Shown: positions 7,132 to 63,090, numbered from the stretch's first letter. The stretch is 64,000 nt of DNA from Blastocatellia bacterium (GCA_035258805.1 DATFWY010000003.1:18839-82838), one strand, 5' to 3'. The notes: generated by a model from the letters alone, not told the origin. Program-made: numbers and translations.

Positions 7132-9108
7132 ATGCCCAAAAAACCGCAATCGCGAAATTCGCGCGCGTCCACCCAGACAGCCGGCCGCACCGGTGTTGTC
7201 ACAAAGAATGTTTCAGAGGAGTCCACTGCTGAACCCGGAAGCGTCCCGCAATCTGCGCTTAGCTGGCGAAATATGTATGCGCTTGTTCCAGTTCTCCTTG
7301 CGCTACTTACGTCTGTAAACACGCTCTGGAATCACTTCGCTGGCGATGACCTGGAGCAAATTCTGAATAACTCGTTCATCAAGACCTTCAGCAACCTCCC
7401 TGCAGCGTTCACCAAAAGCGTATGGTCGTTCACAGCCGCAGACATAGTGTTTACTGTAGATCCTTATTTCAGACCGATGTTTAGCGGCTTGTTTACGATT
7501 AACTATGCGTTGTTCGGCAACAAGCCCTTTGGCTGGCATTTGATAAGCATTTTGACACATGGGGGAGTGACGTTCCTGGTTTTCATGGTTACCAGGGAGA
7601 TCACAGAACGAAACTGGGTAGCCGGACTAACCGCGTCTTTATTCGCCGTTCACCCTGTGCATGCTGAGTCTGTTGCGTGGATCTCGGGAATTACCGACCC
7701 GTTGATGAGTCTATTCCTTCTGCCTTCATTCCTTTTTTACCTGCGCTTTCGCAAAGGCGGTTCCTGGTATCTGCTCTTGCTTTCCCTGGGGTTCTTTTTT
7801 CTCGCGCTGCTTAGCAAAGAAACCGCGATTGCATTTCCACTGATTGTGGGATACTGCGAACTGTTCCACTTCCGGCGAGAAGATCAGATCACACGCCGGC
7901 TCGGTCGCGCAGCTCAACTCGTTGCTCTTTTCGTCGTTCCAGTGCTCCTTTATCTGGCGATGCGGTATTACGCGTTGGGCAACGTCATACTCAGCGCTCA
8001 GCCGCGTTATCCGTTAGGCCAATCGATACTGACGCTGCCGCTTGTATTATTGAAGTATCTCGGTTTGATGGCTATTCCGTGGGGATACAGCTATCAGCAC
8101 ACCATCACGTTTGTGGAGACTCCTGCAAGCATCGCGTTTCTGGCACCTTTAGCAGCGATCATCGCATTAGTCGTTTGTATTGTTTTCGTCAAATCAAGGT
8201 TGGTGACGTTAGGAGCTGTCTGGTTCCTGGCTATGCTGACACCTGCTCTTCTCGCATTGAGGGAATTCGAGCCTGCTTCTCTCTTGCAGGAAAGGTATCT
8301 CTACGCACCGTCCTTTGGTGTCTGTTTGATCATCGCCCTGGGAATTGAGTGGGTAACAGCGCGATTCGCATCCCCAGGTCGAGCAATCGGAGCAGCCTTG
8401 GCAGTTCTATTGATCCTTGTTTGGAGCGTAGTTCTAATCAGGCAGAACCGGACATGGAATGATACTGTCAGCGTGTACAGAAACTCTGTAGCGGTTGACC
8501 CCGACGCGCCTCTTGCTCATGTGCTGTTGGCGCGATCGTTGTACGATGCAGGTAGACCGCGCGAAGCGGAAGCAGAGGCGCGAACAACACTCAACATGGA
8601 CCCGCATTGCGCAACTGCATATCTGTCTCTAAGTTATTTCACTCGGGTGTCAGGGAAGCTCGATAAGGCTTGCGAGATACTCGAGGACGGCGTCTCAGCG
8701 GTACCTGAGAGTACAATGACTCGTCAGGATCTGGCGACAATGTATCTCAATCTAGGACTGCTGTACCAGCAACGGAAAATGTTCGACTTAGCGGAAGAAA
8801 AGCTTCTTCGATCAGCTCAGGTTTCTCCGCGGGCCGTGGCATGGTATTACACTGGACAGTTTTACTTCGAGCAGGGCCGCTATGATGAAGCCCGTGTCCA
8901 GTTTGAACAAACCTCAGCCGCGATACCGCGATGGTTTGCCCCGATACACCTCAGACTGGGTATGACGTACGAGGGTCTTAAAGATACGGCGCGAGCGCAG
9001 ATGGAATTAGAAAAATATCTGGAACTGGCTCCGGCCGATGCGCCGGATCGAGAAGCAACCCGAAAACATCTCCAGGACATGAGGGGTGTCCCGGCCAAAA
9101 ATAAGTAA
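7132..9108 (+). CDS. Polytopic membrane protein with an N-terminal PMT_2/DUF1736-like (TMTC-like glycosyltransferase-39-type) domain and C-terminal TPR repeats
   Basis: There are about 10 TM helices. The YFRPMFSGLFTINYALFGNKPFGWHLISILTHG and AVHPVHAESVAWISGITDPL motifs are characteristic of DUF1736/PMT-like proteins. The C-terminal ~200 aa are TPR-like (AHVLLARSLYDAGRPREAE...YYTGQFYFEQGRYDEA). Confidence 0.55.
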   Translation: MPKKPQSRNSRASTQTAGRTGVVTKNVSEESTAEPGSVPQSALSWRNMYALVPVLLALLTSVNTLWNHFAGDDLEQILNNSFIKTFSNLPAAFTKSVWSFTAADIVFTVDPYFRPMFSGLFTINYALFGNKPFGWHLISILTHGGVTFLVFMVTREITERNWVAGLTASLFAVHPVHAESVAWISGITDPLMSLFLLPSFLFYLRFRKGGSWYLLLLSLGFFFLALLSKETAIAFPLIVGYCELFHFRREDQITRRLGRAAQLVALFVVPVLLYLAMRYYALGNVILSAQPRYPLGQSILTLPLVLLKYLGLMAIPWGYSYQHTITFVETPASIAFLAPLAAIIALVVCIVFVKSRLVTLGAVWFLAMLTPALLALREFEPASLLQERYLYAPSFGVCLIIALGIEWVTARFASPGRAIGAALAVLLILVWSVVLIRQNRTWNDTVSVYRNSVAVDPDAPLAHVLLARSLYDAGRPREAEAEARTTLNMDPHCATAYLSLSYFTRVSGKLDKACEILEDGVSAVPESTMTRQDLATMYLNLGLLYQQRKMFDLAEEKLLRSAQVSPRAVAWYYTGQFYFEQGRYDEARVQFEQTSAAIPRWFAPIHLRLGMTYEGLKDTARAQMELEKYLELAPADAPDREATRKHLQDMRGVPAKNK

Positions 9109-20461: not shown

Positions 20462-20549
20462 CAGACTGCCATCGCAGACCTTCGCTAGCTTTGCGGATCT
20501 TTGCGTCCCTTAGAAACACGCCGAGGCCGCACGCGGCACGGTTCGTCGC

Positions 20550-21113
20550 TTACGCAGGCGGCTTAAGTCCGACCTCCGGAGCTACCTCGCGTAGCGATGC
20601 GATGATGAAGTCGATATGCTCGCCAAGGTCAACGGCCAACTCCTCAGCGCCTTCATAGACTTCATCGCGATTGACCGTTCGCGCGAACGCCTTGTCCTTG
20701 AGCTTCTTCTTAACCGACTTTGATTCGAGATCCCAGATGCCGTTTGGACGAACCAGCGCACACGCTACGACGAATCCCGTCAGCTCGTCGCAGGCGTAGA
20801 GAGCGCGCGCGAGCAGCGTATCGCGCGGTACGCCTGTGTAATTTGCGTGACCCAGGATGGCCCTTCGTATCTCTTCGCTGTATCCCTGCTCGCTCAGAAT
20901 CTCGGAACCCTTAACCGGATGATCAGGAGGATTTGGATACATTTCATAGTCAAAATCGTGAAGCATGCCGACGATGCCCCAGATATCCTCCTGTTCGCCG
21001 AGCCGTCGGGCATATGCTCTCATAACAGCCTCAACCGCCAGCGCGTGCTTTCGCAGGGATTCGCTTTTTGTGTACAGGCAAAGCAGGTTCCACGCATCAT
21101 CTCTTGTGTGCAT
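20550..21113 (-). CDS. HD/HDIG-domain phosphohydrolase
   Basis: LRKHALAVEAVMRAYARRLGE...WGIVGMLHDFDYEMYP...HPVKGSEIL...ILGHANYTG has the His..HD..H..D pattern of the HD superfamily. Confidence 0.75.
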   Translation of the reverse strand: MHTRDDAWNLLCLYTKSESLRKHALAVEAVMRAYARRLGEQEDIWGIVGMLHDFDYEMYPNPPDHPVKGSEILSEQGYSEEIRRAILGHANYTGVPRDTLLARALYACDELTGFVVACALVRPNGIWDLESKSVKKKLKDKAFARTVNRDEVYEGAEELAVDLGEHIDFIIASLREVAPEVGLKPPA

Positions 21114-21152
21114 AAGGAATGAAGATACAGGTTCTCGCGAAAGTCGCCAAGA

Positions 21153-21278
21153 TGGGGGTTGGGGTTGGGGGGTTGGGGCTAGCAGGACAAATGAAACGAA
21201 TAGGACGAATTGGCCTTATTGGTCCTATTGGTCCTATTGGTCCTTTGGTCCTATAACCCAGCCCCAATCCCCAACCCC
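21153..21278. repeat. Inverted G-rich/C-rich arms enclosing an (A)TTGGTCCT x4 tandem repeat, in the HD-marR divergent region
   Basis: The plus strand reads GGGGGTTGGGGTTGGGGGGTTGGGG at 21153-21177. The minus strand reads the mirror CCCC tract at 21258-21278. Between them ATTGGTCCT repeats four times. Confidence 0.8.
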
Positions 21279-21291
21279 TACTAGAAAACAG

Positions 21292-21323
21292 TTGACATCA
21301 TAATAGTTCATATGTAAACTATT
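21292..21323 (+). promoter_or_regulatory. Putative sigma70-type promoter (TTGACA-N17-TAAACT) overlapping a perfect 7-bp inverted repeat AATAGTT-N8-AACTATT, a candidate MarR operator
   Basis: TTGACA is at 21292-21297. The inverted repeat spans 21302-21323, 22 bp upstream of the marR ATG at 21345. Confidence 0.45.
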
Positions 21324-21344
21324 ATCTCGTGGGGGGAAGTGTTG

Positions 21345-21821
21345 ATGAAATTGCACCATGAATTGAAGCTCAAGCAGCCGCTGGCGAGCGTCAACCACGA
21401 GGCCTTGCTGAGCCTCGTGCGAACCTCTTCACTTATGCAGAAACTTTCGGATCGTTTCTTTTCACGGTTCGGCTTGACTGACGTTCAGTTCAATATCCTA
21501 ATGATTCTTAAGGAACATGGCGCCGCCGGTCTCAGCCAGCAGGAACTCAGCGAACATCTCATCGTCACCAAGTCGAACGTCGTCGGACTGATAGATCGAC
21601 TCGAACGCAGCGGCTACGTCAAACGAATGTCTCACCCGTCTGACAGACGCTTCAATCAAATCGTGCTCACCGCAGCCGGCGAAAAACTTGAGCTAAAAAT
21701 AGAAGAACTTTATTTCACCGAAGTTGACAAGATGATGAACGCCCTCAGCGGTCCGCAAAAGAAGGCGGTAATCCAGGCGATGGAGAGGATTCGGCAGTAC
21801 ATCATCAACAGCGAACTGTGA
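21345..21821 (+). CDS. MarR-family transcriptional regulator
   Basis: The winged-helix signature is LSQQELSEHLIVTKSNVVGLIDRLERSGYVKRMSHPSDRRFNQIVLTAAGEKL. ATG at 21345 has GGGGGGAAG upstream. Confidence 0.8.
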   Translation: MKLHHELKLKQPLASVNHEALLSLVRTSSLMQKLSDRFFSRFGLTDVQFNILMILKEHGAAGLSQQELSEHLIVTKSNVVGLIDRLERSGYVKRMSHPSDRRFNQIVLTAAGEKLELKIEELYFTEVDKMMNALSGPQKKAVIQAMERIRQYIINSEL

Positions 21822-21929
21822 GCCCTTGCAACCGCAACCGCCTTCCCCTCATCTATAGCCGCACGCGCGCTGTTGACCGGGCGAAGGTTCAAGGGTAGCG
21901 AATGTGCTCGACCCTAAACGGAGGCCTTT

Positions 21930-24900
21930 ATGGCTGAAGACAGTACCTCACCCGATAAACTCAAGCAGCTCGACGACCGACTGAATTATCTCGAGTCAGT
22001 AGCGCGCGAGACCGTAGCTCGCCTTTACGCAGTCGAAAAGCATCTGGGACTGGTGTTTAAGGCGGTACCAAAACATCTCGACCAGCCAGCTCCAGTAGAT
22101 CAGCAAACACGAGATTCAAGGCTTCGCGCCGTGGAAGATGCTCTCAAGGGTGTTCCTCCCATCGCAACGCAACCGAGGCCACCCGCTGAAGAAATCAACC
22201 AAAAGCAGCCGCCTCTGGACAAGCCAACTTCCATGGAGCCTTCATCTCCGGAGCCACCTCCAGCCAAGCCGGTTGTCGATGAATCAGTAAGCAAGATCCC
22301 CGCTGTCGCGCCGCCGACTGCTGATCAACCGGCCGACAAAGGACCGGCTACAGTTGCACCGTCGCCAACCGCACCGCCATTCATTGCACCGCAGACTCCT
22401 CCCGAGAAAAAGGTGCCTGGAGCGCCGGTGCCGCAGGGCTCTCCATCTCACATGCCGACGGCTCGCCCGGCCGCGCCGTCGATCGCACCCAGTGCTTTCG
22501 CACGCCGGGGGGATCTCGAAGCTCGCATCGGAGGCAACTGGTTCAATCGCATCGGCATCATCGCGATTTTTCTCGGCGTAACTTTTTTCCTGAAATATGC
22601 GGTCGACCGTGAGTGGATCGGTCCAGCAGGTCGAGTTCTTATCGGCGTTGCGGTTGGACTTGCGTTCCTCGCCCTCGGCGAGCGTCTACGAAAACGCTAT
22701 GCGAGCTATGCCTATGGACTAACGGGAGGCGGCATAGCCATTTTGTATGCCGCAATATGGTTCGCATCTGGAAAGAGATACGACCTGCTTTCTCAACCGG
22801 TGGCCTTCGGGTTGATGGCGCTGGTAACAGCTACGGCATCGTTGCTGTCCGCTCGTTACAACGCGTTAGCTATTGCCGTCCTTGGACTCATCGGAGGATT
22901 TCTGACGCCGATTCTTCTGTCGACCGGCGTCGATAATGAAGCCGCGCTGTTCACCTACATCGCTCTCCTGGATCTTGGCGTCCTCGCATTAGCCTATTCG
23001 AAGCAATGGCGCAGCCTGAACTACATGGCGTTCATCTCTACAGTGTTGATGTTCGCTGCGTGGATGTTGGAGTGGTATACGTCCGAAAAATTGTGGACCA
23101 CAATGCTGTTCCTCACAATTCTGTTCGCGATCTTCGCGCTGCTCGCGGTGCTTTACAACGTCGTCAATCGGCGCCCAACGGGGTGGCTCGATCTGGCGAT
23201 GGTTTTCTCAAACGCGCTTCTGTACTTCGGCACCAGTTATGAACTGCTGGATGATCAGCATCACGGCATGCTCGGGCTCTTTGCATTGCTTATTTCGGCG
23301 TTCTATATGGGTCTGGGCTATTTCACCTACAGTCGTGATCGTGATGACAACCTGCTTATCCTGACTTTTCTCGGTCTCTCGTTCCTGTTTGCGGTTCTGG
23401 CGGTACCAATCCAGTTCGATCAGCACTGGGTAACTATGGGATGGGCGATCGAAGGCGCGGTAATGAGCTGGATAGGCTTGCGCGCGAACGATCGGACGTC
23501 GAGGAATGCGGCGCTGGTTGTGTTTGGTATCGCGATCGCGCACTGGTTCTACGTCGATATGCGTGAGTTCGCTTACCATGCAAATGAAACCTTCATTCCG
23601 CTCTGGAACCGCCGCGCGCTATCCACGGGCGTGCTGGTTACGGCGTTGGCAACGGCTGCCTGGTTTTACAAGAAAACCAAATCCAATATTGCGGATGATG
23701 AGCGCTCGATGTTCAGCGGGCTATACCTGTTGGCTGCAAACACCATGGCAGTGATCCTGTTGAGCCTCGACGCAAATGACTACTTCAATCAGAAGAAGGC
23801 TGGACTACCGCGGGCAGGCAATGAGAGAGATCAACTCAACAATCAGCACTACTTTACGATTTCTGCGCTTTGGTCGATCTACGGTGCAGCAGCGCTGATC
23901 GTAGGCATCAAACGCAGGTTAAAGCTGATTCGAGTAGCGGCTATGCTCCTGCTAGCGGCAGCGATCATTCTGGTACTGGCTCTGAACCTGTCGTACTACA
24001 GCGCGCCGTGGCACACGATCGCGTTTAATCAAACCTTTGGATCATTCGCTCTGCTTGTAGGAGCATTGTCCAGCGGAGCCTGGTTCTATGCAAAAGACAA
24101 GAATATCGATCCTCAGGAGCGGACGGCTGCTCTCGGTGGATTGATTATCGCAGCGAATTTGCTCGCGATTGTGGCTCTCAGTGCTGAAGCGCTGGGCCAC
24201 TTCGATCGCGCGCAAGCGATCGCAAAGGGCGAGCTAGTAGCGCAGCTTGAGAATTCCAAGCAACTTGCGTTGACAGCCGTATGGACGATTTTTGCGACAA
24301 CCGGATTGATAATTGGAATCCGCCGCCGCTCACAGGCTGTTCGCACAGGATCCTTGCTTCTCCTTGCGCTTGCCATTGCCAAGGTAAGCGCGATCGATTC
24401 GCAGTACTACGCCGCAAGCTGGCACAGCTTACTGATTAATCCCACGTTTGGAGCTTTTGCTCTGCTGATTATTTCGTTGGCAATTGGTGCATGGCTCTAT
24501 GCGCGGGCTGATCAAATCGGCACTAAAGAACGATCGTCAGTCATCCCGTTGTTAGCAGGTGTATCAGTTTTGCTCTCGGTTATTGCGCTGAGCGCCGAGG
24601 CCCTGGGCTATTATGATCGTGCCCAAACGCTTGCCAGCGGAGAGTTTTTCCGACAGCTCGAAAACACAAAACAACTGGCACTGTCCGCAGTTTGGATCGT
24701 ATTTGGCGTAACGGTCCTGATCTTAGGAATCCGTCGCGGGCTAAAGTCTCTGCGGATAGGCGCGTTGATTCTACTTGCTCTTGCGACCGCAAAAGCAGTT
24801 TTCGTCGACCTCGGTTACTACAATGCCGGCTGGCACAATGTGCTCCTGAACCCGACCTTCGCCGTTTTTGCGCTGCTCATTATCGCTCTCGCAGCTGGCG

Positions 24901-25790: not shown

Positions 25791-25799
25791 GTGGGAGAA

Positions 25800-25910
25800 G
25801 CAGAAGACAGAAGGCAGAAAGCAGTAGGCAGTCGCCAGAAGGCAGAAACGGCATCACGAAGCGTACCGCTTTCAGCTTTCTGCCTACTGCCTTCTGCTTA
25901 CTGCCCGCTA
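25800..25910. terminator. Imperfect palindromic region between the convergent DUF2339-like gene and acnA
   Basis: The words GGCAGAAAGC/GCTTTCTGCC and AGTAGGCAG/CTGCCTACT occur in inverted orientation. It is a likely bidirectional terminator. Confidence 0.45.
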
Positions 25911-28771: not shown

Positions 28772-28890
28772 ACTTTATTCAGCTCCCAACGTGACGCGTG
28801 GTGCAGTTGCGTGAGGTCTCGGGCTGCGGCTTGTGACCGCGAAAACTTAATGTTCAGTTTAAGGAGAGGTATGTAGGATCGTCAAGGAAA

Positions 28891-29080
28891 CAGTGGTCAG
28901 TAGGCAGTACGCAGTAGGGCGGTCAGTAGTCAGCAATCTTTTATCTGTGTAATCTGCGTAATCTGCGGATAAATTCACTTGAAAGCCCACTGACTACGGA
29001 CTACGGATAACGGACTACGGATAACGGACTACGGACCAATGACTACTGACTACGAACCACTGCCTACTTCCTTCTGCTTA
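28891..29080. repeat. Complex imperfect palindrome in the acnA upstream region
   Basis: The arms are CAGTGGTCAGTAGGCAGTA and TACTGACTACGAACCACTG. The core has GTAATCTGCGTAATCTGCGGAT plus tandem ACGGACTACGGATA x3. Confidence 0.7.
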
Positions 29081-30000
29081 CCGCTTTCTGTTTTCTTTAG
29101 TTCATCGATTCCAATTGAGCTAGATCGAATGTGAAGATCGCGCTGCGGAAATGGTATTTCGATTCCGTGCTTCCGAAATGATCGCTCGATAGCAAAATTG
29201 ACGCGACTGCGAATAATTGCCTGATCGCGCGGTTCGTCTATCCATACGCGTATCTGCAGTTTCAACGCGGAGTCACCGAAACCATCGAAATGCACCTGGG
29301 GCGCCGGCTCGCTCAATATCTCTTCAACGGACTCGGCCGCCTCGATCAGCGCCTCTGCAGCCTTTTTGAGGTCGCTCGTGTACGCGACCCCAACCGGAAT
29401 GTTTAATCGCACATTCCGATCTCCAAAAGAGAAGTTCACGAATTTATTTTGTACCAGCTTGGAGTTCGGCAGGATCACAGCCATATTCTCATTTGTAACA
29501 ATCATTGTTGAGCGCAAATTGATATTCTTGACGCGTCCTTCTACACCGCCGTCAAGCTCGATCCAGTCGCCGATACGGACCGGTCTCTCAAACAACAGAA
29601 TGAAACCCGAGGCGATATCTGATGCCACGTACTGTAGCCCGAAACCGATGCCAACAGACAAGAACCCGACAATAACAGCAACGCTGGTGAGATCAACGTT
29701 GAACCCAATCTTTACCGCGTACAAGATCCCTAACGAGATGATCAAGTAATGAACAAGTCTAAGAAGCGTGTATTGAAGGCCGAGCTCGATTCGAAATTTG
29801 GGAAGGACGCGCTTCTGCAAAATACGTCGGGTGAATCGCGAGATGAGAGCTGCGATGCAGAAAACCAAAATCAGTAAGAACAGGCTTATGATCGAAACTC
29901 GAAACGAACCTCCCTGCTCGATCAATGGATAGTTCAAGTAACGTAAGACCCGCTCGAACAAGCTTTCCTGCAGGATTAAGGTCGACGGATATTGCACCAA
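29050..30000 (-). CDS. Small-conductance mechanosensitive channel (MscS family)
   Basis: The TM3 pore helix plus beta-domain signature is SVAVIVGFLSVGIGFGLQYVASDIASGFILLFERPVRIGDWIE...GRVKNINLRSTMIVTNEN...LPNSKL. The start is TTG or GTG near 30000, with AGGAGA upstream. Confidence 0.85.
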   Translation of the reverse strand: MVQYPSTLILQESLFERVLRYLNYPLIEQGGSFRVSIISLFLLILVFCIAALISRFTRRILQKRVLPKFRIELGLQYTLLRLVHYLIISLGILYAVKIGFNVDLTSVAVIVGFLSVGIGFGLQYVASDIASGFILLFERPVRIGDWIELDGGVEGRVKNINLRSTMIVTNENMAVILPNSKLVQNKFVNFSFGDRNVRLNIPVGVAYTSDLKKAAEALIEAAESVEEILSEPAPQVHFDGFGDSALKLQIRVWIDEPRDQAIIRSRVNFAIERSFRKHGIEIPFPQRDLHIRSSSIGIDELKKTESGKQKEVGSGS

Positions 30001-30138
30001 ATTCGCATTCTCCTGGTTCGAAAAGAATTGTATGCCCTCGATTGATTATCGAGGCCCAAAGCCACCGCAAGCGCCCATAACTTCAATATAACATTTAGGC
30101 TCGATCAGCCCAACGACGCGAGTATCGGGATTTCTAAT

Positions 30139-30268
30139 CTTCCGGCGTAATCTGCGTCATCTGCGCCACCTGCGGATGGTCGCAGTTGTTGAAGGCTTAG
30201 ACCCAACCATCCACAGATTACGCAGATGATAAGAACCCGAACGCCGTTCTGGTGATAACTTTCCGGCG
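30139..30268. repeat. MITE-like hairpin element with ~25-bp inverted arms, flanked by an imperfect 8/9-bp direct repeat
   Basis: The arms are GTAATCTGCGTCATCTGCGCCACCTGCGGATGGT (30148-30180) and ACCATCCACAGATTACGCAGATGA (30207-30230). The flanking repeats are CTTCCGGCG (30139-30147) and TTTCCGGCG (30260-30268). Confidence 0.6.
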
Positions 30269-30342
30269 ATTGTTATAATGATTGACCGTTTCCCCGAATC
30301 GGGTTGATCGATCCGGCAAAGAAACTGCGGAGGCAATTCTGA

Positions 30343-33709: not shown

Positions 33710-33772
33710 TTTTATTCCTTAAATCGTTCGGCGTTCAGCGTTTCACGTTCAGAGTTTATCTGACAGCCAGAC

Positions 33773-35206: not shown

Positions 35207-35318
35207 CAGGGTCTGGTGAGAACTGAATCTGTGCCTTTGCGTCTTTGCGACTTAACGGCTTTGCGTTTATAGCGTCATTGTTGCCGAATACATTGACCAG
35301 CCTCCCAGCGATCACTCA

Positions 35319-36419: not shown

Positions 36420-36507
36420 GTAGTAACGATTTCAGTCGCTCTCTCTTCCAGGTAGTAGCGACTTCAGTCGTTCTGAGCAAGTAATGAGGTACTCGCTACG
36501 ACTGATG

Positions 36508-36578
36508 TACCGTAGACTGTCTAGTCTGCGAAATTTTACGAATTCACAGACATCCGCAGACTGGACAGTCTACGGTAC
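36508..36578. repeat. Palindromic repeat family A, copy 2
   Basis: GTACCGTAGACTGTCTAGTCTGCG-N24-CGCAGACTGGACAGTCTACGGTAC. The right arm overlaps the M20 stop at 36570 and is terminator-like. Confidence 0.8.
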
Positions 36579-37850
36579 GTCACTCCCAATCAACCGCATC
36601 GCACCAATCGCCATCGCTTTGCACGCATCAGTCAGGTGTTCTATCTCACAATATTCATCAGGTTGATGCGCCAGTTTTAGTATACCGGGACCATACGCTA
36701 TGCACTGCTCGATGCCGGCAATTCGAGCGAAGTGTTTCTGGTCATAAGTGCCGGGACTCGCAATCAGCGGAGTCTCACGACCCACTGTCTCTGTCACGAC
36801 CTGTTTCATCGTCCTCACAAGTTGAGAATCCGGCTCGGTCATGGTTGGATGCACAATCAGCTTGTCCCGAAGCTCATAATCGAGCTCCGGATCTTCTGTT
36901 CGCAGCTCCTCCATTATTTGGATGATTTCCAAACGGACATCGTCTAACGCTTCTTCGATCAAAAACCGGCGGTCGAACACGGCTCGACAGAGATCCGCGA
37001 CGCAGGGAGTCTGTGGTGAATCTGGATCCTGGCCGCCGACCAGCGAATTTACATTGATAGTGGCGCTTCGGGCACCTTCAGGTTCGACAGGCATTCGAGT
37101 CCGACGTTTGGCTAGTCTCGGCTTCAGCTGGCGTTCGATACGTTCGATAAGCCGGGCCATTCGATCGATGGCGCTGACACCCAGAAAAGGCATGCTGCCG
37201 TGCGCGATTCGCCCGCGCATAAGAACTTCAAACCAGTACACACCTCGATGACCAAGGCAAATCCTGTCATAGTCAAGAGGCTCGGTGATAATCACGTAAT
37301 CGACCTGGTCCGGTCTGATATAACCGTGCTCCGCGAGATAAGCTACGCCGGCAAAGCCTCCGCTCTCCTCGTCTACGGTAGCGCTCTGTTCGATCGAACC
37401 CGCCAGCTTAACGCCGGCGCGCCGCAGCGCTTCGATTGCAAACAACGATGCAGCGATACCGGATTTTTGATCCGTGACGCCTCGGCCGTATATCCGGCCG
37501 TCCTTTACCTCGCCCGCAAAGGGATCGAGGGTCCAGCCTGTCCCCGGCGGGACAACGTCAATGTGCCCGTTGAAGTGAAGCGTCGGGTGAAAATGCGAGC
37601 CAGGAAGACGTCCGATGACGTTGATGCGTGGATGTTTGAGGGAGCATTCGGGCCGATCCGAGACCTCGACAAAACTCACATCGTACCCGAATTCTGTAAG
37701 CTTATCTGAAACGAAATGGGCGCAATCCTTGTAGTTCTCCCCTGGTGGATTGATCGTAGGAATTCGCACAAACGCACGCAGCCAATCAACCATCTCACCC
37801 GCAAGCTCATTCACGCGAGCCACGATGTGTTCTTCAATGGTGTTTCGCAT
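36570..37850 (-). CDS. M20-family metallopeptidase (ArgE/DapE/CPG2-like)
   Basis: NGHIDVVPPGTGW...DPF...GRIYGRGVTDQKSGIAASLFAIEAL is the M20 signature, including the metal-binding His/Asp and the catalytic GxxD...K. Confidence 0.8.
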   Translation of the reverse strand: MRNTIEEHIVARVNELAGEMVDWLRAFVRIPTINPPGENYKDCAHFVSDKLTEFGYDVSFVEVSDRPECSLKHPRINVIGRLPGSHFHPTLHFNGHIDVVPPGTGWTLDPFAGEVKDGRIYGRGVTDQKSGIAASLFAIEALRRAGVKLAGSIEQSATVDEESGGFAGVAYLAEHGYIRPDQVDYVIITEPLDYDRICLGHRGVYWFEVLMRGRIAHGSMPFLGVSAIDRMARLIERIERQLKPRLAKRRTRMPVEPEGARSATINVNSLVGGQDPDSPQTPCVADLCRAVFDRRFLIEEALDDVRLEIIQIMEELRTEDPELDYELRDKLIVHPTMTEPDSQLVRTMKQVVTETVGRETPLIASPGTYDQKHFARIAGIEQCIAYGPGILKLAHQPDEYCEIEHLTDACKAMAIGAMRLIGSDVP

Positions 37851-39342: not shown

Positions 39343-39402
39343 AAGCCCTTCCTTTCACCGGTTTCGGATGCTTAATGATTCGAAGAGTGGCTACTCCACT
39401 TA

Positions 39403-39510
39403 ATTACGAATTTATTCGTTATGATTCAAAATTCAACGGACCTTAATCAAAACGAATAAATTCGTTACTACGTGGAATAAATCAAAACGAATAAATTCGT
39501 TACTACGTGG
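39403..39510. repeat. Direct repeats (2.5x) of ATCAAAACGAATAAATTCGTTACTACGTGG, which contain the palindromic word ACGAATAAATTCGT
   Basis: Read directly from the sequence. It lies between the aminotransferase start and the cofE stop. The same word recurs at 49085-49320 and 55042-55110. Confidence 0.8.
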
Positions 39511-39540
39511 AAGAGCCAATAGTATCACAGGACTGCGGGC

Positions 39541-40293: not shown

Positions 40294-40416
40294 TCTCCGC
40301 GCCTCTGCGTCTTTGCGTCTTTGCGTCTTTGCGTTTAAAAAAGGCCTTACAACACGCCAAAATTATCTAACGACCACAAAATTATCTACCGACAAAATTC
40401 TCTAGCGACGACAAAA
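40294..40416. promoter_or_regulatory. cofC-cofE intergenic repeat array: (TCTTTGCG)x4, then four direct ~19-bp repeats ACAAAATTATCTAMCG
   Basis: Read directly from the sequence. It lies immediately upstream of cofE on its coding strand. TCTTTGCG words also occur at 32140, 35230 and 62950. Confidence 0.6.
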
Positions 40417-49103: not shown

Positions 49104-49320
49104 AATTCGTTCAGCGTTTGGCGTTCAACGTTCAGGGTTTAGCGTTCCTGGTTTCTAGTTTCTGGTCTCATCTGCGGATAGTCAACGAACTCAGCGCGCG
49201 CTATGCCAGACCTATCCGCGGATTACGCAGATGAGATCAGGACAGAGAATTAAGCTAAACCGCGAAAGTTGAACCCTGAACGCTTAGCGGTGAACGCTGT
49301 CAAACCCTGAACGAAATTTT
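49085..49320. repeat. Composite nested palindrome between the convergent folK and sensor kinase genes
   Basis: The outer arms are GAACGAATAAAATTCGTTCAGCGTT...GGTTTAGCG and CGCTTAGCGG...GAACGAAATTTTATTCGTTC. The inner arms are TCTCATCTGCGGATAG and CTATCCGCGGATTACGCAGATGAGA. Confidence 0.75.
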
Positions 49321-53653: not shown

Positions 53654-55042
53654 ATGTACTTCAAACAATTTTATCTCGGGTGCCTCGCGCACGCGTCGTA
53701 CCTGATCGGTTCAGAAGGCGAAGCAGCGGTTGTAGATCCGCAGCGCGATGTTGATCAATACATCATTGAAGCCGAAGCCCAGGGCTTTAAGATAAAGCAC
53801 ATCATCGAAACGCATCTGCACGCCGATTTCGTCAGCGGGCATCAGGAGCTCGCGGCGCGCACCCGCGCGGACATCGTGTTCGGCCCAGAGTCCGGCGCGA
53901 CGTTCCCACATCGCTCAGTAAGCGATGGCGATGAGATCGCGATGGGACGAGTAACGCTGCGGTTTCTAGCAACTCCTGGCCATACGCCGGAAAGCATTTC
54001 AATCCTGGTGATCGACGGCGACCTATCATCCGAACCTCAAAAAGTGCTGACCGGCGACGCTTTGTTTATCGGCGACGTTGGGCGTCCGGATCTGGCTGGA
54101 GGACGCGGGTACACCGCCGAGCAAATGGCCGCGATGCTGTACGACAGCCTGCACGACAAACTAATGAAGCTTGATGATTCTGTTGAGGTATTTCCGGCAC
54201 ACGGCGCCGGCTCGATGTGTGGCCGCAATATTTCGAAAGAGACTTCATCAACTATCGGCCAACAGCGACGCTTCAATTATGCTCTCAGGCCGATGTCCAA
54301 GGCGGACTTTGTTAGTATGATGACCGTCGATCTGCCCGAAGCACCATCCTACTTTCCCCGCGATGCGGAGATTAACAGAACGGGCGCCGCAACTCTCGAA
54401 GCATTGCCGCGGCTTAAAGAGCTTTCCCCAAAGGAAGTGGACGAGCTTTCAAAAAAAGGACACGTCCTTCTCGACGTGCGCCCATCGGCGGCATTCGGCA
54501 ATGCACACATTCCGGGCGCAATCAATATCGGCCTCAGCGGGCAGTTCGCTTCCTGGTGCGGAATCCTCCTAGCTATGGAAACACCGATAGTCTTGATTGC
54601 CGATCGTCAGGATGCGATTGATGAAGGGGTAATGAGGCTCGCGCGCGTCGGCATCGAAAGCGTAGTCGGATACCTGGCAGGCGGGATGCGCGAATGGGAC
54701 CGGGCTGGATTCGAAACCAAACAAATCTCCCAAATGCCGGTGGATGAGCTGTATCATCGCCGCGAGAGCGACGCGCCGCTTGGAATCATAGATGTTCGTC
54801 GCCCTGGCGAGTATGCCGATGGCCACGTACCAGGTGCGATTAATCTGACGCTTTCGAATCTCGAAAAAGAATTCTCTGGATTGGAGCCGAAGGATCCCAT
54901 CGCGGTTATTTGCGCCAGCGGATATCGTTCGAGCGCGGCCACCAGCATTCTCGAACGGCATGGTTTCACCGAGGTTTACAACATAGTTGGTGGAACCAAC
55001 GGGTGGGTGAGCGCCGGCTTTCCAATCGAAAAGCCCATGTAG
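53654..55042 (+). CDS. Persulfide dioxygenase (ETHE1-like MBL fold) fused to two rhodanese domains
   Basis: ETHLHADFVSGH is the MBL HxHxDH motif. The two rhodanese modules have active-site loops CGRN... and CASGYRSSAA (CxxGxR). Confidence 0.8.
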   Translation: MYFKQFYLGCLAHASYLIGSEGEAAVVDPQRDVDQYIIEAEAQGFKIKHIIETHLHADFVSGHQELAARTRADIVFGPESGATFPHRSVSDGDEIAMGRVTLRFLATPGHTPESISILVIDGDLSSEPQKVLTGDALFIGDVGRPDLAGGRGYTAEQMAAMLYDSLHDKLMKLDDSVEVFPAHGAGSMCGRNISKETSSTIGQQRRFNYALRPMSKADFVSMMTVDLPEAPSYFPRDAEINRTGAATLEALPRLKELSPKEVDELSKKGHVLLDVRPSAAFGNAHIPGAINIGLSGQFASWCGILLAMETPIVLIADRQDAIDEGVMRLARVGIESVVGYLAGGMREWDRAGFETKQISQMPVDELYHRRESDAPLGIIDVRRPGEYADGHVPGAINLTLSNLEKEFSGLEPKDPIAVICASGYRSSAATSILERHGFTEVYNIVGGTNGWVSAGFPIEKPM

Positions 55043-55110
55043 TAACGGATTTATTCGTTTGCGTGAGACCAACCTAATTACGAATCAGAACCAATAAATT
55101 CGTTACTACG
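55042..55110. repeat. Palindrome GTAACGGATTTATTCGTT...AATAAATTCGTTAC between convergent genes
   Basis: Read directly. It shares the ACGAATAAATTCGT word with the 39403 and 49085 elements. It is a likely bidirectional terminator. Confidence 0.7.
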
Positions 55111-56947: not shown

Positions 56948-57058
56948 GACTTCGATGTAACGTAGACTGTCCGGTCTGCGGATTGTGGCAACAAAATCTA
57001 GCTTTTAAAGGTATGGGGTTCCTCAGCAGACCGGACAGTCTACGGTACATCTGAAGTC
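56948..57058. repeat. Palindromic repeat family A, copy 3 (~32-bp inverted arms, 46-bp loop)
   Basis: GACTTCGATGTAACGTAGACTGTCCGGTCTGC ... GCAGACCGGACAGTCTACGGTACATCTGAAGTC. Confidence 0.8.
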
Positions 57059-62853: not shown

Positions 62854-63090
62854 AGAATTTCGTCCTTTTCTTCAGCAAATAAATCAACCCTTATTATTGG
62901 CAACCGTGTACGCTAGCCGCACGAGCAAGGAATTTCAAGGTGAGAACTGCTTAGCGACTTTGCGATTTTGCGTCTTTGCGTGAGATTGACGAACTGGTTT
63001 GCAACTTATTCCACATCAACATTGCTTGAGCCGAGCTACGCCCGGTGATAACATCGCGCGCGCTCAACACAACGCTTCGGAGCAAATAAA

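Follow-up and report, generated by a model that had tools for sequence, protein, structure and literature searches.

Between two divergently oriented genes of a Blastocatellia (Acidobacteriota) soil bacterium lies a short stretch of DNA in which mirror-image G-quadruplex (G4) motifs, tandem repeats, a promoter, and an inverted repeat are crowded together, and which a first-pass annotation described as a dense, structured control region. The question that this locus raises is whether the G4 motifs and the repeats belong to the control of the two genes. In the current study, the region was dissected by folding, repeat searches, and comparison with orthologous loci; the repeat element is real and striking in appearance, yet it belongs to an already described kind of repeat. 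Throughout, "the window" denotes the whole 64-kb stretch of DNA that was analysed, whose host was placed through a search of MAGs with the DUF2339 protein encoded next to marR.

Divergent promoters and the MarR operator

The intergenic region (21114-21344, 231 nt) separates the HD gene, on the minus strand, from marR, on the plus strand. The genes and control signals of the locus are the following.

20550-21113 (minus; start codon 21113-21111): gene for an HD/HDIG-domain phosphohydrolase of 187 aa (Pfam HD, 5e-08; NCBIfam HDIG; orthologues align from residue 1)
21122-21150 (minus): candidate HD promoter, -35 TTGGCG at 21150-21145, 17-nt spacer, -10 TATCTT at 21127-21122 (geometry shared with orthologues)
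21292-21320 (plus): marR promoter, -35 TTGACA at 21292-21297, 17-nt spacer, -10 TAAACT at 21315-21320 (scan score 10/12; almost invariant in orthologues)
21300-21325 (no strand): probable MarR operator, ATAATAGTT-N8-AACTATTAT, a perfect 9-bp inverted repeat over the promoter spacer and the -10 box
21345-21821 (plus): gene for a MarR-family regulator of 158 aa from the ATG at 21345, in a reading frame that opens with GTG at 21339 (Pfam MarR, 1e-15; 158-aa gene call in contig L003)
21930-25790 (plus): gene for a DUF2339 membrane protein of 1286 aa, probably co-transcribed with marR (Pfam DUF2339, 9e-148; marR-DUF2339 pair conserved)

The promoter scan found a single sigma-70-like match within 20900-21500, namely TTGACA-N17-TAAACT, and the claim that this promoter overlaps a perfect inverted repeat was borne out, the repeat measuring 9 bp. 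MarR-family promoters are autoregulated and carry a palindromic operator, and 21292-21325 resembles them in having an inverted repeat of 6-9 bp with an 8-bp spacer over the -10 box, a likeness that does not extend to the G4/repeat element. The protein search with DUF2339, which retrieved Blastocatellia and other Acidobacteriota MAGs (best identity 74%), yielded six loci with an orthologous marR gene (82-100% identical), three of them also with a divergent HD gene. These loci were found independently of the promoter sequence, and across all six the stretch GTTGACAT....ATAGTTCATATATAAACTAT is almost invariant; the operator core ATAGTT-N8-AACTAT is conserved in five of the six, with one substitution in L007. 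A marR gene lies downstream in each case, which fits an autoregulated MarR promoter; the palindrome at 21300-21325, and only this part of the region, both overlies its own gene's promoter and is conserved with that gene, as a MarR autoregulatory operator would be. From what is known of the family, MarR would be expected to bind there.

On the other side, the orthologues carry TTGAAA-N17-TATCTT upstream of the HD gene (reported by the scan in L005, at 2280-2318, and read from the sequences of the other orthologues). The corresponding TTGGCG-N17-TATCTT of the window went unreported because it is a weaker match (8/12) that falls under the scan threshold; by its shared geometry it would be the HD promoter. 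Its -10 box ends 8 nt before the ATG (9 nt in the orthologues) and the HD gene has no Shine-Dalgarno-like sequence, which together suggest that the HD mRNA is probably leaderless or nearly so. The functional, conserved cis-elements of the region are probably these two promoters and the MarR-type palindrome.

Anatomy of the repeat palindrome

The space between the two -35 boxes is occupied by an element that begins 3 nt past that of HD and stops 13 nt short of that of marR. Its parts are as follows.

21154-21278 (no strand): whole element, a nested imperfect palindrome of 125 nt made of two inverted pairs of short tandem repeats (folding and orthologue comparison)
21154-21178 (plus): outer left arm, a (GGGGTT)-type array, G5TTG4TTG6TTG4, with a canonical G4 motif (sequence; G4Hunter +3.04)
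21184-21210 (no strand): inner left arm, AGGACAAATGAAACGAATAGGACGAAT (AGGAC...TAGGAC), complementary to the GTCCT repeats (inverted-repeat search)
21209-21254 (no strand): inner right arm, a tandem 9-mer array of ATTGGCCTT (degenerate), three exact ATTGGTCCT, and one TTGGTCCT (TRF)
21257-21278 (minus): outer right arm, CCCAGCCCCAATCCCCAACCCC, which reads C3AGC4AATC4AAC4 on the plus strand (G4Hunter -2.28)

Both G4 motifs of the first-pass annotation are present with slightly shifted bounds: the plus-strand tract occupies 21154-21178 (not 21153-21177), and its minus-strand counterpart, GGGGTTGGGGATTGGGGCTGGG (i.e., GGGG TT GGGG ATT GGGG CT GGG), occupies 21257-21278 (not 21258-21278). The repeat array reported between them also exists, although it was counted as four copies and proved to consist of three exact ATTGGTCCT units, one TTGGTCCT unit, and one degenerate ATTGGCCTT unit; TRF describes it as (A)TTGGTCCT with a period of 9 and 5.2 copies (about five units), for which 0.02 are expected by chance. 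A single long hairpin had also been suggested as possible; an AGGAC-containing inner arm had been missed. According to the inverted-repeat search, the outer arms pair between 21155-21176 and 21257-21278 at 82%, and the inner arms, 27 nt long, are 78% complementary and separated by a 7-nt centre. Because the inner left arm pairs with the GTCCT repeats and the G-rich arm with the C-rich arm, 21154-21278 is one nested palindrome and not three separate features.

These features exceed what chance would give. The pattern of three G4 tracts with loops of 1-7 nt has four overlapping matches in the window, all of them here (0.05 expected), and the G4Hunter scores of +3.04 and -2.28 are by far the highest in the window, where |score| elsewhere does not exceed 1.72. 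As single-stranded DNA the element folds at -36.3 kcal/mol (z = -5.6), as RNA at -74.9 kcal/mol (plus strand) and -68.9 kcal/mol (minus strand), and the region as a whole reaches z = -5.5 to -5.7 against dinucleotide shuffles. The lowest-energy 140-nt stretch of the 64 kb is the element itself (-74.1 kcal/mol, against a mean of -37.8 and a standard deviation of 7.3).

Several conventional identities were considered for so stable a structure and set aside. A scan of 20500-22000 against Rfam 15 at a permissive E-value gave C4 antisense RNA as its best hit (24.6 bits against a gathering score of 45), so that known structured RNA families are represented only by sub-threshold, generic hairpin matches. 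The promoter and terminator scan of the window, which considers consensus matches, reported no intrinsic terminator here and no minus-strand promoter upstream of the element; for this reason a terminator role and a location in a 5' UTR were rejected. Neither of the two divergent promoters, as placed above, would be expected to transcribe the element. Both arrays lie upstream of the two -35 boxes (21150 and 21292) and outside the -35/-10 spacers, which argues against a promoter repeat that mediates phase variation. A coding reading was set aside as well: the two reading frames that traverse the element (20965-21303, plus; 21097-21267, minus) lie antisense to the HD gene and the repeats or overlap them, and between orthologues the spacer length varies by tens to hundreds of bases.

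Support from independent assemblies

Sequences of this kind invite the suspicion of misassembly, and the element is not an assembly artefact: in two metagenome assemblies made independently, contigs enter it from one or both sides and agree with the window in sequence. HD and DUF2339 proteins of identical sequence occur in two public metagenome assemblies. Contigs L001 (ENA) and L002 (JGI) both break off at window position 21218, where the 9-mer array starts, and L003 begins at 21189, inside the palindrome; their overlaps with the window are identical except for one T/G difference in the G-tract of L001. Two independent short-read assemblies thus break at the same base within the palindrome, and repeat hairpins of this type probably fragment Blastocatellia MAGs.

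A hypervariable spacer between conserved promoters

Comparison with related loci separates what is conserved in this region from what is not. The palindrome is missing in all five orthologous species that were aligned, the sixth locus (L003) being the window's own sequence in another assembly, and HD and marR lie only 133 nt apart in L005 and 126 nt in L006, as compared with 231 nt in the window. A metagenome scan with the conserved promoter/operator pattern added 34 loci. Both promoters are conserved in about 20 orthologous divergent HD/marR loci, among which the distance from the HD ATG to the marR -35 box ranges from 71 to 300 nt: 71, 77 (the commonest value, in seven loci, or eight with a neighbouring 78), 95, 103, 113, 139, 158, 170, 177 (the window), 191, 205, 260, and 300 nt. 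In the 19 lineages analysed, the spacer between the -35 boxes measures 33-262 nt; at least six of them have a spacer of 39-40 nt without structure (z about 0), and the long spacers of L055, L007, and L026 are likewise unstructured. Significant hairpin z-scores are confined to some of these lineages, with spacer hairpins unrelated to that of the window in L032 (z = -9.3), L038 (z = -4.0), and L033 (z = -3.0). A REP-like hairpin, CCACCCAC..GTGGGTGG, occupies the spacer in L033, L052, and L027, and the distant L042/L045 lineage has a GGTCCTAT-type 9-mer array, (ATAGGTCCT)x3.4, at the corresponding site. Most orthologues that retain both promoters lack the element, and the conserved regulation can dispense with it, given that a spacer of about 39 bp suffices in orthologues.

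The closest relatives were compared unit by unit and by eye, MAFFT alignment being unreliable inside the repeats. The nearest of them, L034 (MarR 97.5% and HD 95.7% identical), carries a homologous element between the same flanks, with six left G-units against four in the window, and with one AGGAC and three GTCCT-type units against two and five. Its left arm reads GGGGGTT GGGGGTT GGGCGTT GTGGATT GGCGACT GGGGTT, a single TAGGAC faces the three GTCCT-type units, and the right arm is CCCCCAAT CCCCAA CCCCCCAA. In L050 (HD 96% identical), degenerate G-rich and C-rich outer arms surround a long (CGTTCAG)n heptamer hairpin (z = -8.3 to -8.7), and L055 (HD 95% identical) has an unrelated, unstructured spacer of 153 nt with no trace of the element. 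L002 and L055 both come from the JGI metagenome Ga0126384, where related populations share one soil sample; their HD proteins are 100% (L002, with the palindrome) and 95% (L055, without it) identical to that of the window. Canonical G4 motifs occur on both strands in the window only, on one strand in L034, and on neither in L050, and the other orthologues score |G4Hunter| <1.2. As the two-stranded motif is found in the window alone and decays in L034 and L050, G4 potential is not the property that has been preserved.

This comparison, made at the level of sequence, indicates that the element is limited to the closest relatives, changes fast, and is not a conserved control element. The description of a dense control region therefore stands for the promoter and operator, which are almost invariant in the six loci, and is not supported for the mirror G4 motifs and the TTGGTCCT repeats, which lie outside the core promoters and are missing in most orthologues, and whose G-tracts decay in L034 and L050.

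Origin of the element and alternative explanations

We consider it fairly probable (about 70%) that the element is a repeat palindrome peculiar to this lineage, driven by slippage, and situated in a permissive spacer that is not transcribed. On this reading, inverted (GGGGTT)n/(AACCCC)n arrays enclosing inverted AGGAC-type/(TTGGTCCTA)n arrays would fill the space that separates the -35 boxes of a conserved divergent pair of sigma-70-type promoters, of which one serves a near-leaderless HD gene and the other an autoregulated marR-DUF2339 unit with a palindromic operator. Growth would have taken place in situ: inverted duplication and slippage during replication would have enlarged a short near-palindrome of the ancestor, TCCTAAATAGGGATTGG, and the unit number would still be changing. 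The evidence for an ancestral seed is suggestive only: the loop core of L034, ATAAATAGGACGAATTAG, and the basal 39-nt spacers (TCCTAAATAGGGATTGG) have TAAATAGG..ATT.G in common, and this basal sequence is itself a near-palindrome. As a passive effect, the distance between the promoters would have been lengthened from about 40 to about 140 bp. The element may also leave the B-form under the negative supercoiling between divergent polymerases, either as a cruciform or as a G4 plus i-motif on either strand; any topological effect is one that we infer, and although the element may play a part in DNA topology or form a G4, the data give no support for this. A point against the slippage-driven reading is that the element might compensate or contribute in the window's clade, where the HD -35 box is weaker (TTGGCG).

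A more ambitious interpretation would make the element a member of an undescribed, genome-wide Blastocatellia class of modular, nested palindromes built from repeats (6-9 nt tandem arrays in inverted pairs, which grow from palindrome centres and repeatedly colonise the same spacers), in which the HD/marR copy would respond to supercoiling as a cruciform/G4 element and uncouple the two promoters. We regard this as unlikely. The recurrent spacer hairpins of L032, L038, L033, and L050, together with the L042/L045 array, speak against the slippage-driven reading in that they could point to a structure or binding site under selection and not to neutral change.

Such selection might act on the hairpin itself, the palindrome being extruded as a cruciform under supercoiling and serving as a topological insulator that buffers or decouples the divergent promoters. 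This would explain why hairpins of unrelated sequence recur in the spacer: strong hairpins with differing sequences are found there in 6 of 19 lineages, and a second divergent region of the window (30001-30342) also has a repeat hairpin. Negative supercoiling favours cruciforms, and divergent promoters about 200 bp apart experience steep supercoiling changes (PMC10642903). However, at least six lineages manage with a spacer of 39-40 nt and no hairpin (z about 0), the long spacers of L055, L007, and L026 are unstructured, and imperfect arms that are 78-82% complementary extrude poorly. Similar hairpins of the window also occupy convergent and co-directional spacers and so are not specific to divergent promoters. 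A selected cruciform is accordingly given rather poor odds.

A regulatory G4 switch, in which the motifs fold when the spacer is unwound and activate or repress HD and/or marR directly or through a G4-binding protein, deserves still less credence. Its appeal lies in the four G-tracts per strand and the very high G4Hunter scores, in the very stable four-tetrad G4 that (TTGGGG)n forms in vitro (PMC8934647), in the capacity of bacterial G4s close to promoters to alter expression (PMC4692102), and in a position where the negative supercoiling of divergent transcription peaks (PMC10642903). The capacity to form a G4 is not conserved, however, being reduced to one strand in L034, lost in L050, and below |score| 1.2 in the other orthologues; the promoters are conserved without the element; the complementary arm on the same strand competes as a 22-bp hairpin stem; and Rehm et al. 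saw no regulatory role for such repeats, which are scarcer between divergent genes (PMC4692102). An in-vitro G4 signal would not show function in any case, because (TTGGGG)n is already known to form very stable quadruplexes (PMC8934647).

We think it very improbable that a mobile hairpin element of the MITE, REP, or REPIN kind was inserted between the promoters. True dispersed REP-like palindromes do exist in this genome (CGTAGACTGTCTAGTCTGCGG, eight copies at three loci; ACGAATTTATTCGTTA, two loci), REP-like hairpins (CCACCCAC..GTGGGTGG) sit in the same spacer of other lineages (L033, L052, L027), and the (CGTTCAG)n module of the L050 element recurs at window positions 33725 and 49104. Against this, the only hits of blastn over the window and related loci (384 kb) are the element and its orthologous counterpart in L034, positions 21151-21153 and 21279-21283 show no visible target-site duplication, the loop core seems to be homologous with the spacer of the ancestor, and L034 differs by whole repeat units, as is typical of slippage. 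Pattern searches of the window and loci, and blastn-short against the 384 kb of Blastocatellia DNA, likewise returned no further copies of the element or its modules except at the L034 site, and the (GGGGTT)n-type unit occurs at one locus of the window and, beyond the orthologous site, nowhere in the 384 kb of related DNA. A dispersed REP/REPIN or MITE family is not supported on this basis, the many near-identical copies of such a family not being found within the 64 kb plus 384 kb searched.

Least credible of all is a TTGGTCCTA array that serves as a multi-site binding platform for a regulator, in the manner of iterons or direct-repeat operators: the array has five phased 9-bp units, a related (ATAGGTCCT)x3.4 array lies at the same site in the distant L042/L045 lineage, and the basal spacers retain a related near-palindrome, ATCCTAAATAGGGAT, but unit number and sequence are free to vary, most orthologues lack the array, the 9-bp period is out of helical phase, the adjacent MarR-type palindrome is unrelated in sequence, and no candidate protein is known.

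Relation to known repeats and to other repeats of the genome

The closest described class for this slippage-driven palindrome is that of the quadruplex-forming simple sequence repeats of 6-9 nt found between genes in Xanthomonas (GGGAATC) and Nostoc (GGGGA(C/T)T) (PMC4692102). In those genomes four units are preferred, unit number differs between species, and no function was found; the repeats are under-represented between divergent genes, and in Xanthomonas there are 70-75 inverted pairs in convergent arrangement that could fold as stem-loops or as G4s (PMC4692102). The element resembles this class (PMC4692102) in being a non-coding, G-rich array of short units with four G-tracts, a convergent inverted pair, and a variable unit number. 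Where the class of Rehm et al. (2015) has at least four G-tracts of a head-to-tail G-rich unit of 6-9 nt, the element has four GGGGTT-type tracts per strand; its location is non-coding, and its unit number varies (four and four in the window, six and four in L034). It differs in its hexameric unit (GGGGTT), its Blastocatellia host, its position between divergent genes, and its nested layout, in which the pair encloses a second, unrelated repeat pair; the 64 kb contain one locus with this unit.

Other known systems offer partial parallels. The long simple sequence repeats of prokaryotes, as far as they are summarized in PMC4679880, have units of 5-11 nt with heptamers dominant, and are attributed to polymerase slippage (Mrazek 2007, in PMC4679880). 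The arrays of the window and related DNA agree with that summary in being intergenic, short in period, and variable in unit number, with periods peaking at 7 nt; they depart from it in that about half of the 24 arrays of 6-9 nt form inverted pairs and hence long hairpins, some of them nested, and the arrays of the element itself, with periods of 6 and 9, depart from its heptamer dominance. Cyanobacterial STRR heptamers belong to the same category of long simple sequence repeats. REPs, in turn, form dispersed families whose near-identical copies are associated with RAYT transposases (PMC3733652; PMC3116915). Like REPs, REPINs, and BIMEs, the element is an intergenic, hairpin-forming inverted pair, and true REP-like repeats coexist with it in the window; unlike REPs, it is single-copy in the available data, is made of tandem units, and changes by whole units. 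Finally, the Tetrahymena telomeric repeat, (TTGGGG)n, folds in vitro into four-tetrad quadruplexes of great stability (PMC8934647), and as the plus-strand arm has the same repeat sequence, a four-tetrad G4 would be expected of it in vitro. In contrast to the telomeric repeat, this tract lies inside a bacterial chromosome as duplex DNA, its complementary arm is 80 nt away, and there is no telomere relation. A literature search for such repeats in Acidobacteria found nothing specific.

Several other hairpins of the window have arms of short tandem repeats. In 384 kb (the window plus related loci), 7 nt is the most frequent tandem-repeat period, and an inverted partner lies near about half of the arrays of 6-9 nt. 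The main examples are as follows.

25796-25905, intergenic: mirrored hairpin of (GCAGAAG)n and (CTTCTGC)n
28888-29090, intergenic: mirrored arrays of CAGTAGG, GACTACG, and ATCTGCGTA types
30145-30229, intergenic: (GCGTCATCT)n hairpin
49104-49300, intergenic: (CGTTCAG)n around a TCATCTGCG core
7325-7540 of the related MAG locus L008: (CAGAGGT)n (ATTTTCC)n, loop, (GGAAAAT)n (ACCTCTG)n

The other nested hairpins of the window have arms built from tandem repeats of 7-9 nt and lie mostly between convergent or co-directional genes, and their units differ by locus and between orthologous sites. The heptamer hairpin 3' of DUF2339, for instance, is present in the window and absent from three comparable orthologues. 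Nested repeat hairpins look like a genome-wide habit of this Blastocatellia clade.

Three further repeat families were observed. The REP/REPIN-like CGTAGACTGTCTAGTCTGCGG has eight copies at three intergenic loci (879-1032, 36500-36585, and 56954-57051; 0 expected by chance), arranged as head-to-head pairs plus a 30-nt tandem triplet at 879-967. Another dispersed family of palindromes, with the core ACGAATTTATTCGTTA, gives seven matches at 39388-39518 and 55039-55109, including a 35-nt tandem duplication at 39445-39512. Arrays of the related 8-nt units CTTTGCGT, TGCGTCTT, and CTTTGCGA occupy several intergenic sites (35235-35266, 40306-40334, and 62950-62980; also L050, 1064-1088), and an inverted partner is not obvious there.

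Implications

Regulation cannot be concluded from a G4 or hairpin signal in a promoter region, however strong the signal is. At this locus, it is the comparison of orthologues that tells the conserved cis-elements (two promoters and a MarR operator) apart from a repeat that evolves fast. The elements break short-read assemblies here, with consequences for MAG contiguity in soil metagenomes. Should the palindrome respond to supercoiling between the divergent promoters, it would provide a natural test case, for a single soil sample contains near-isogenic variants that have it and others that lack it. Blastocatellia join Xanthomonas and cyanobacteria as lineages that are rich in short-period intergenic repeat hairpins.
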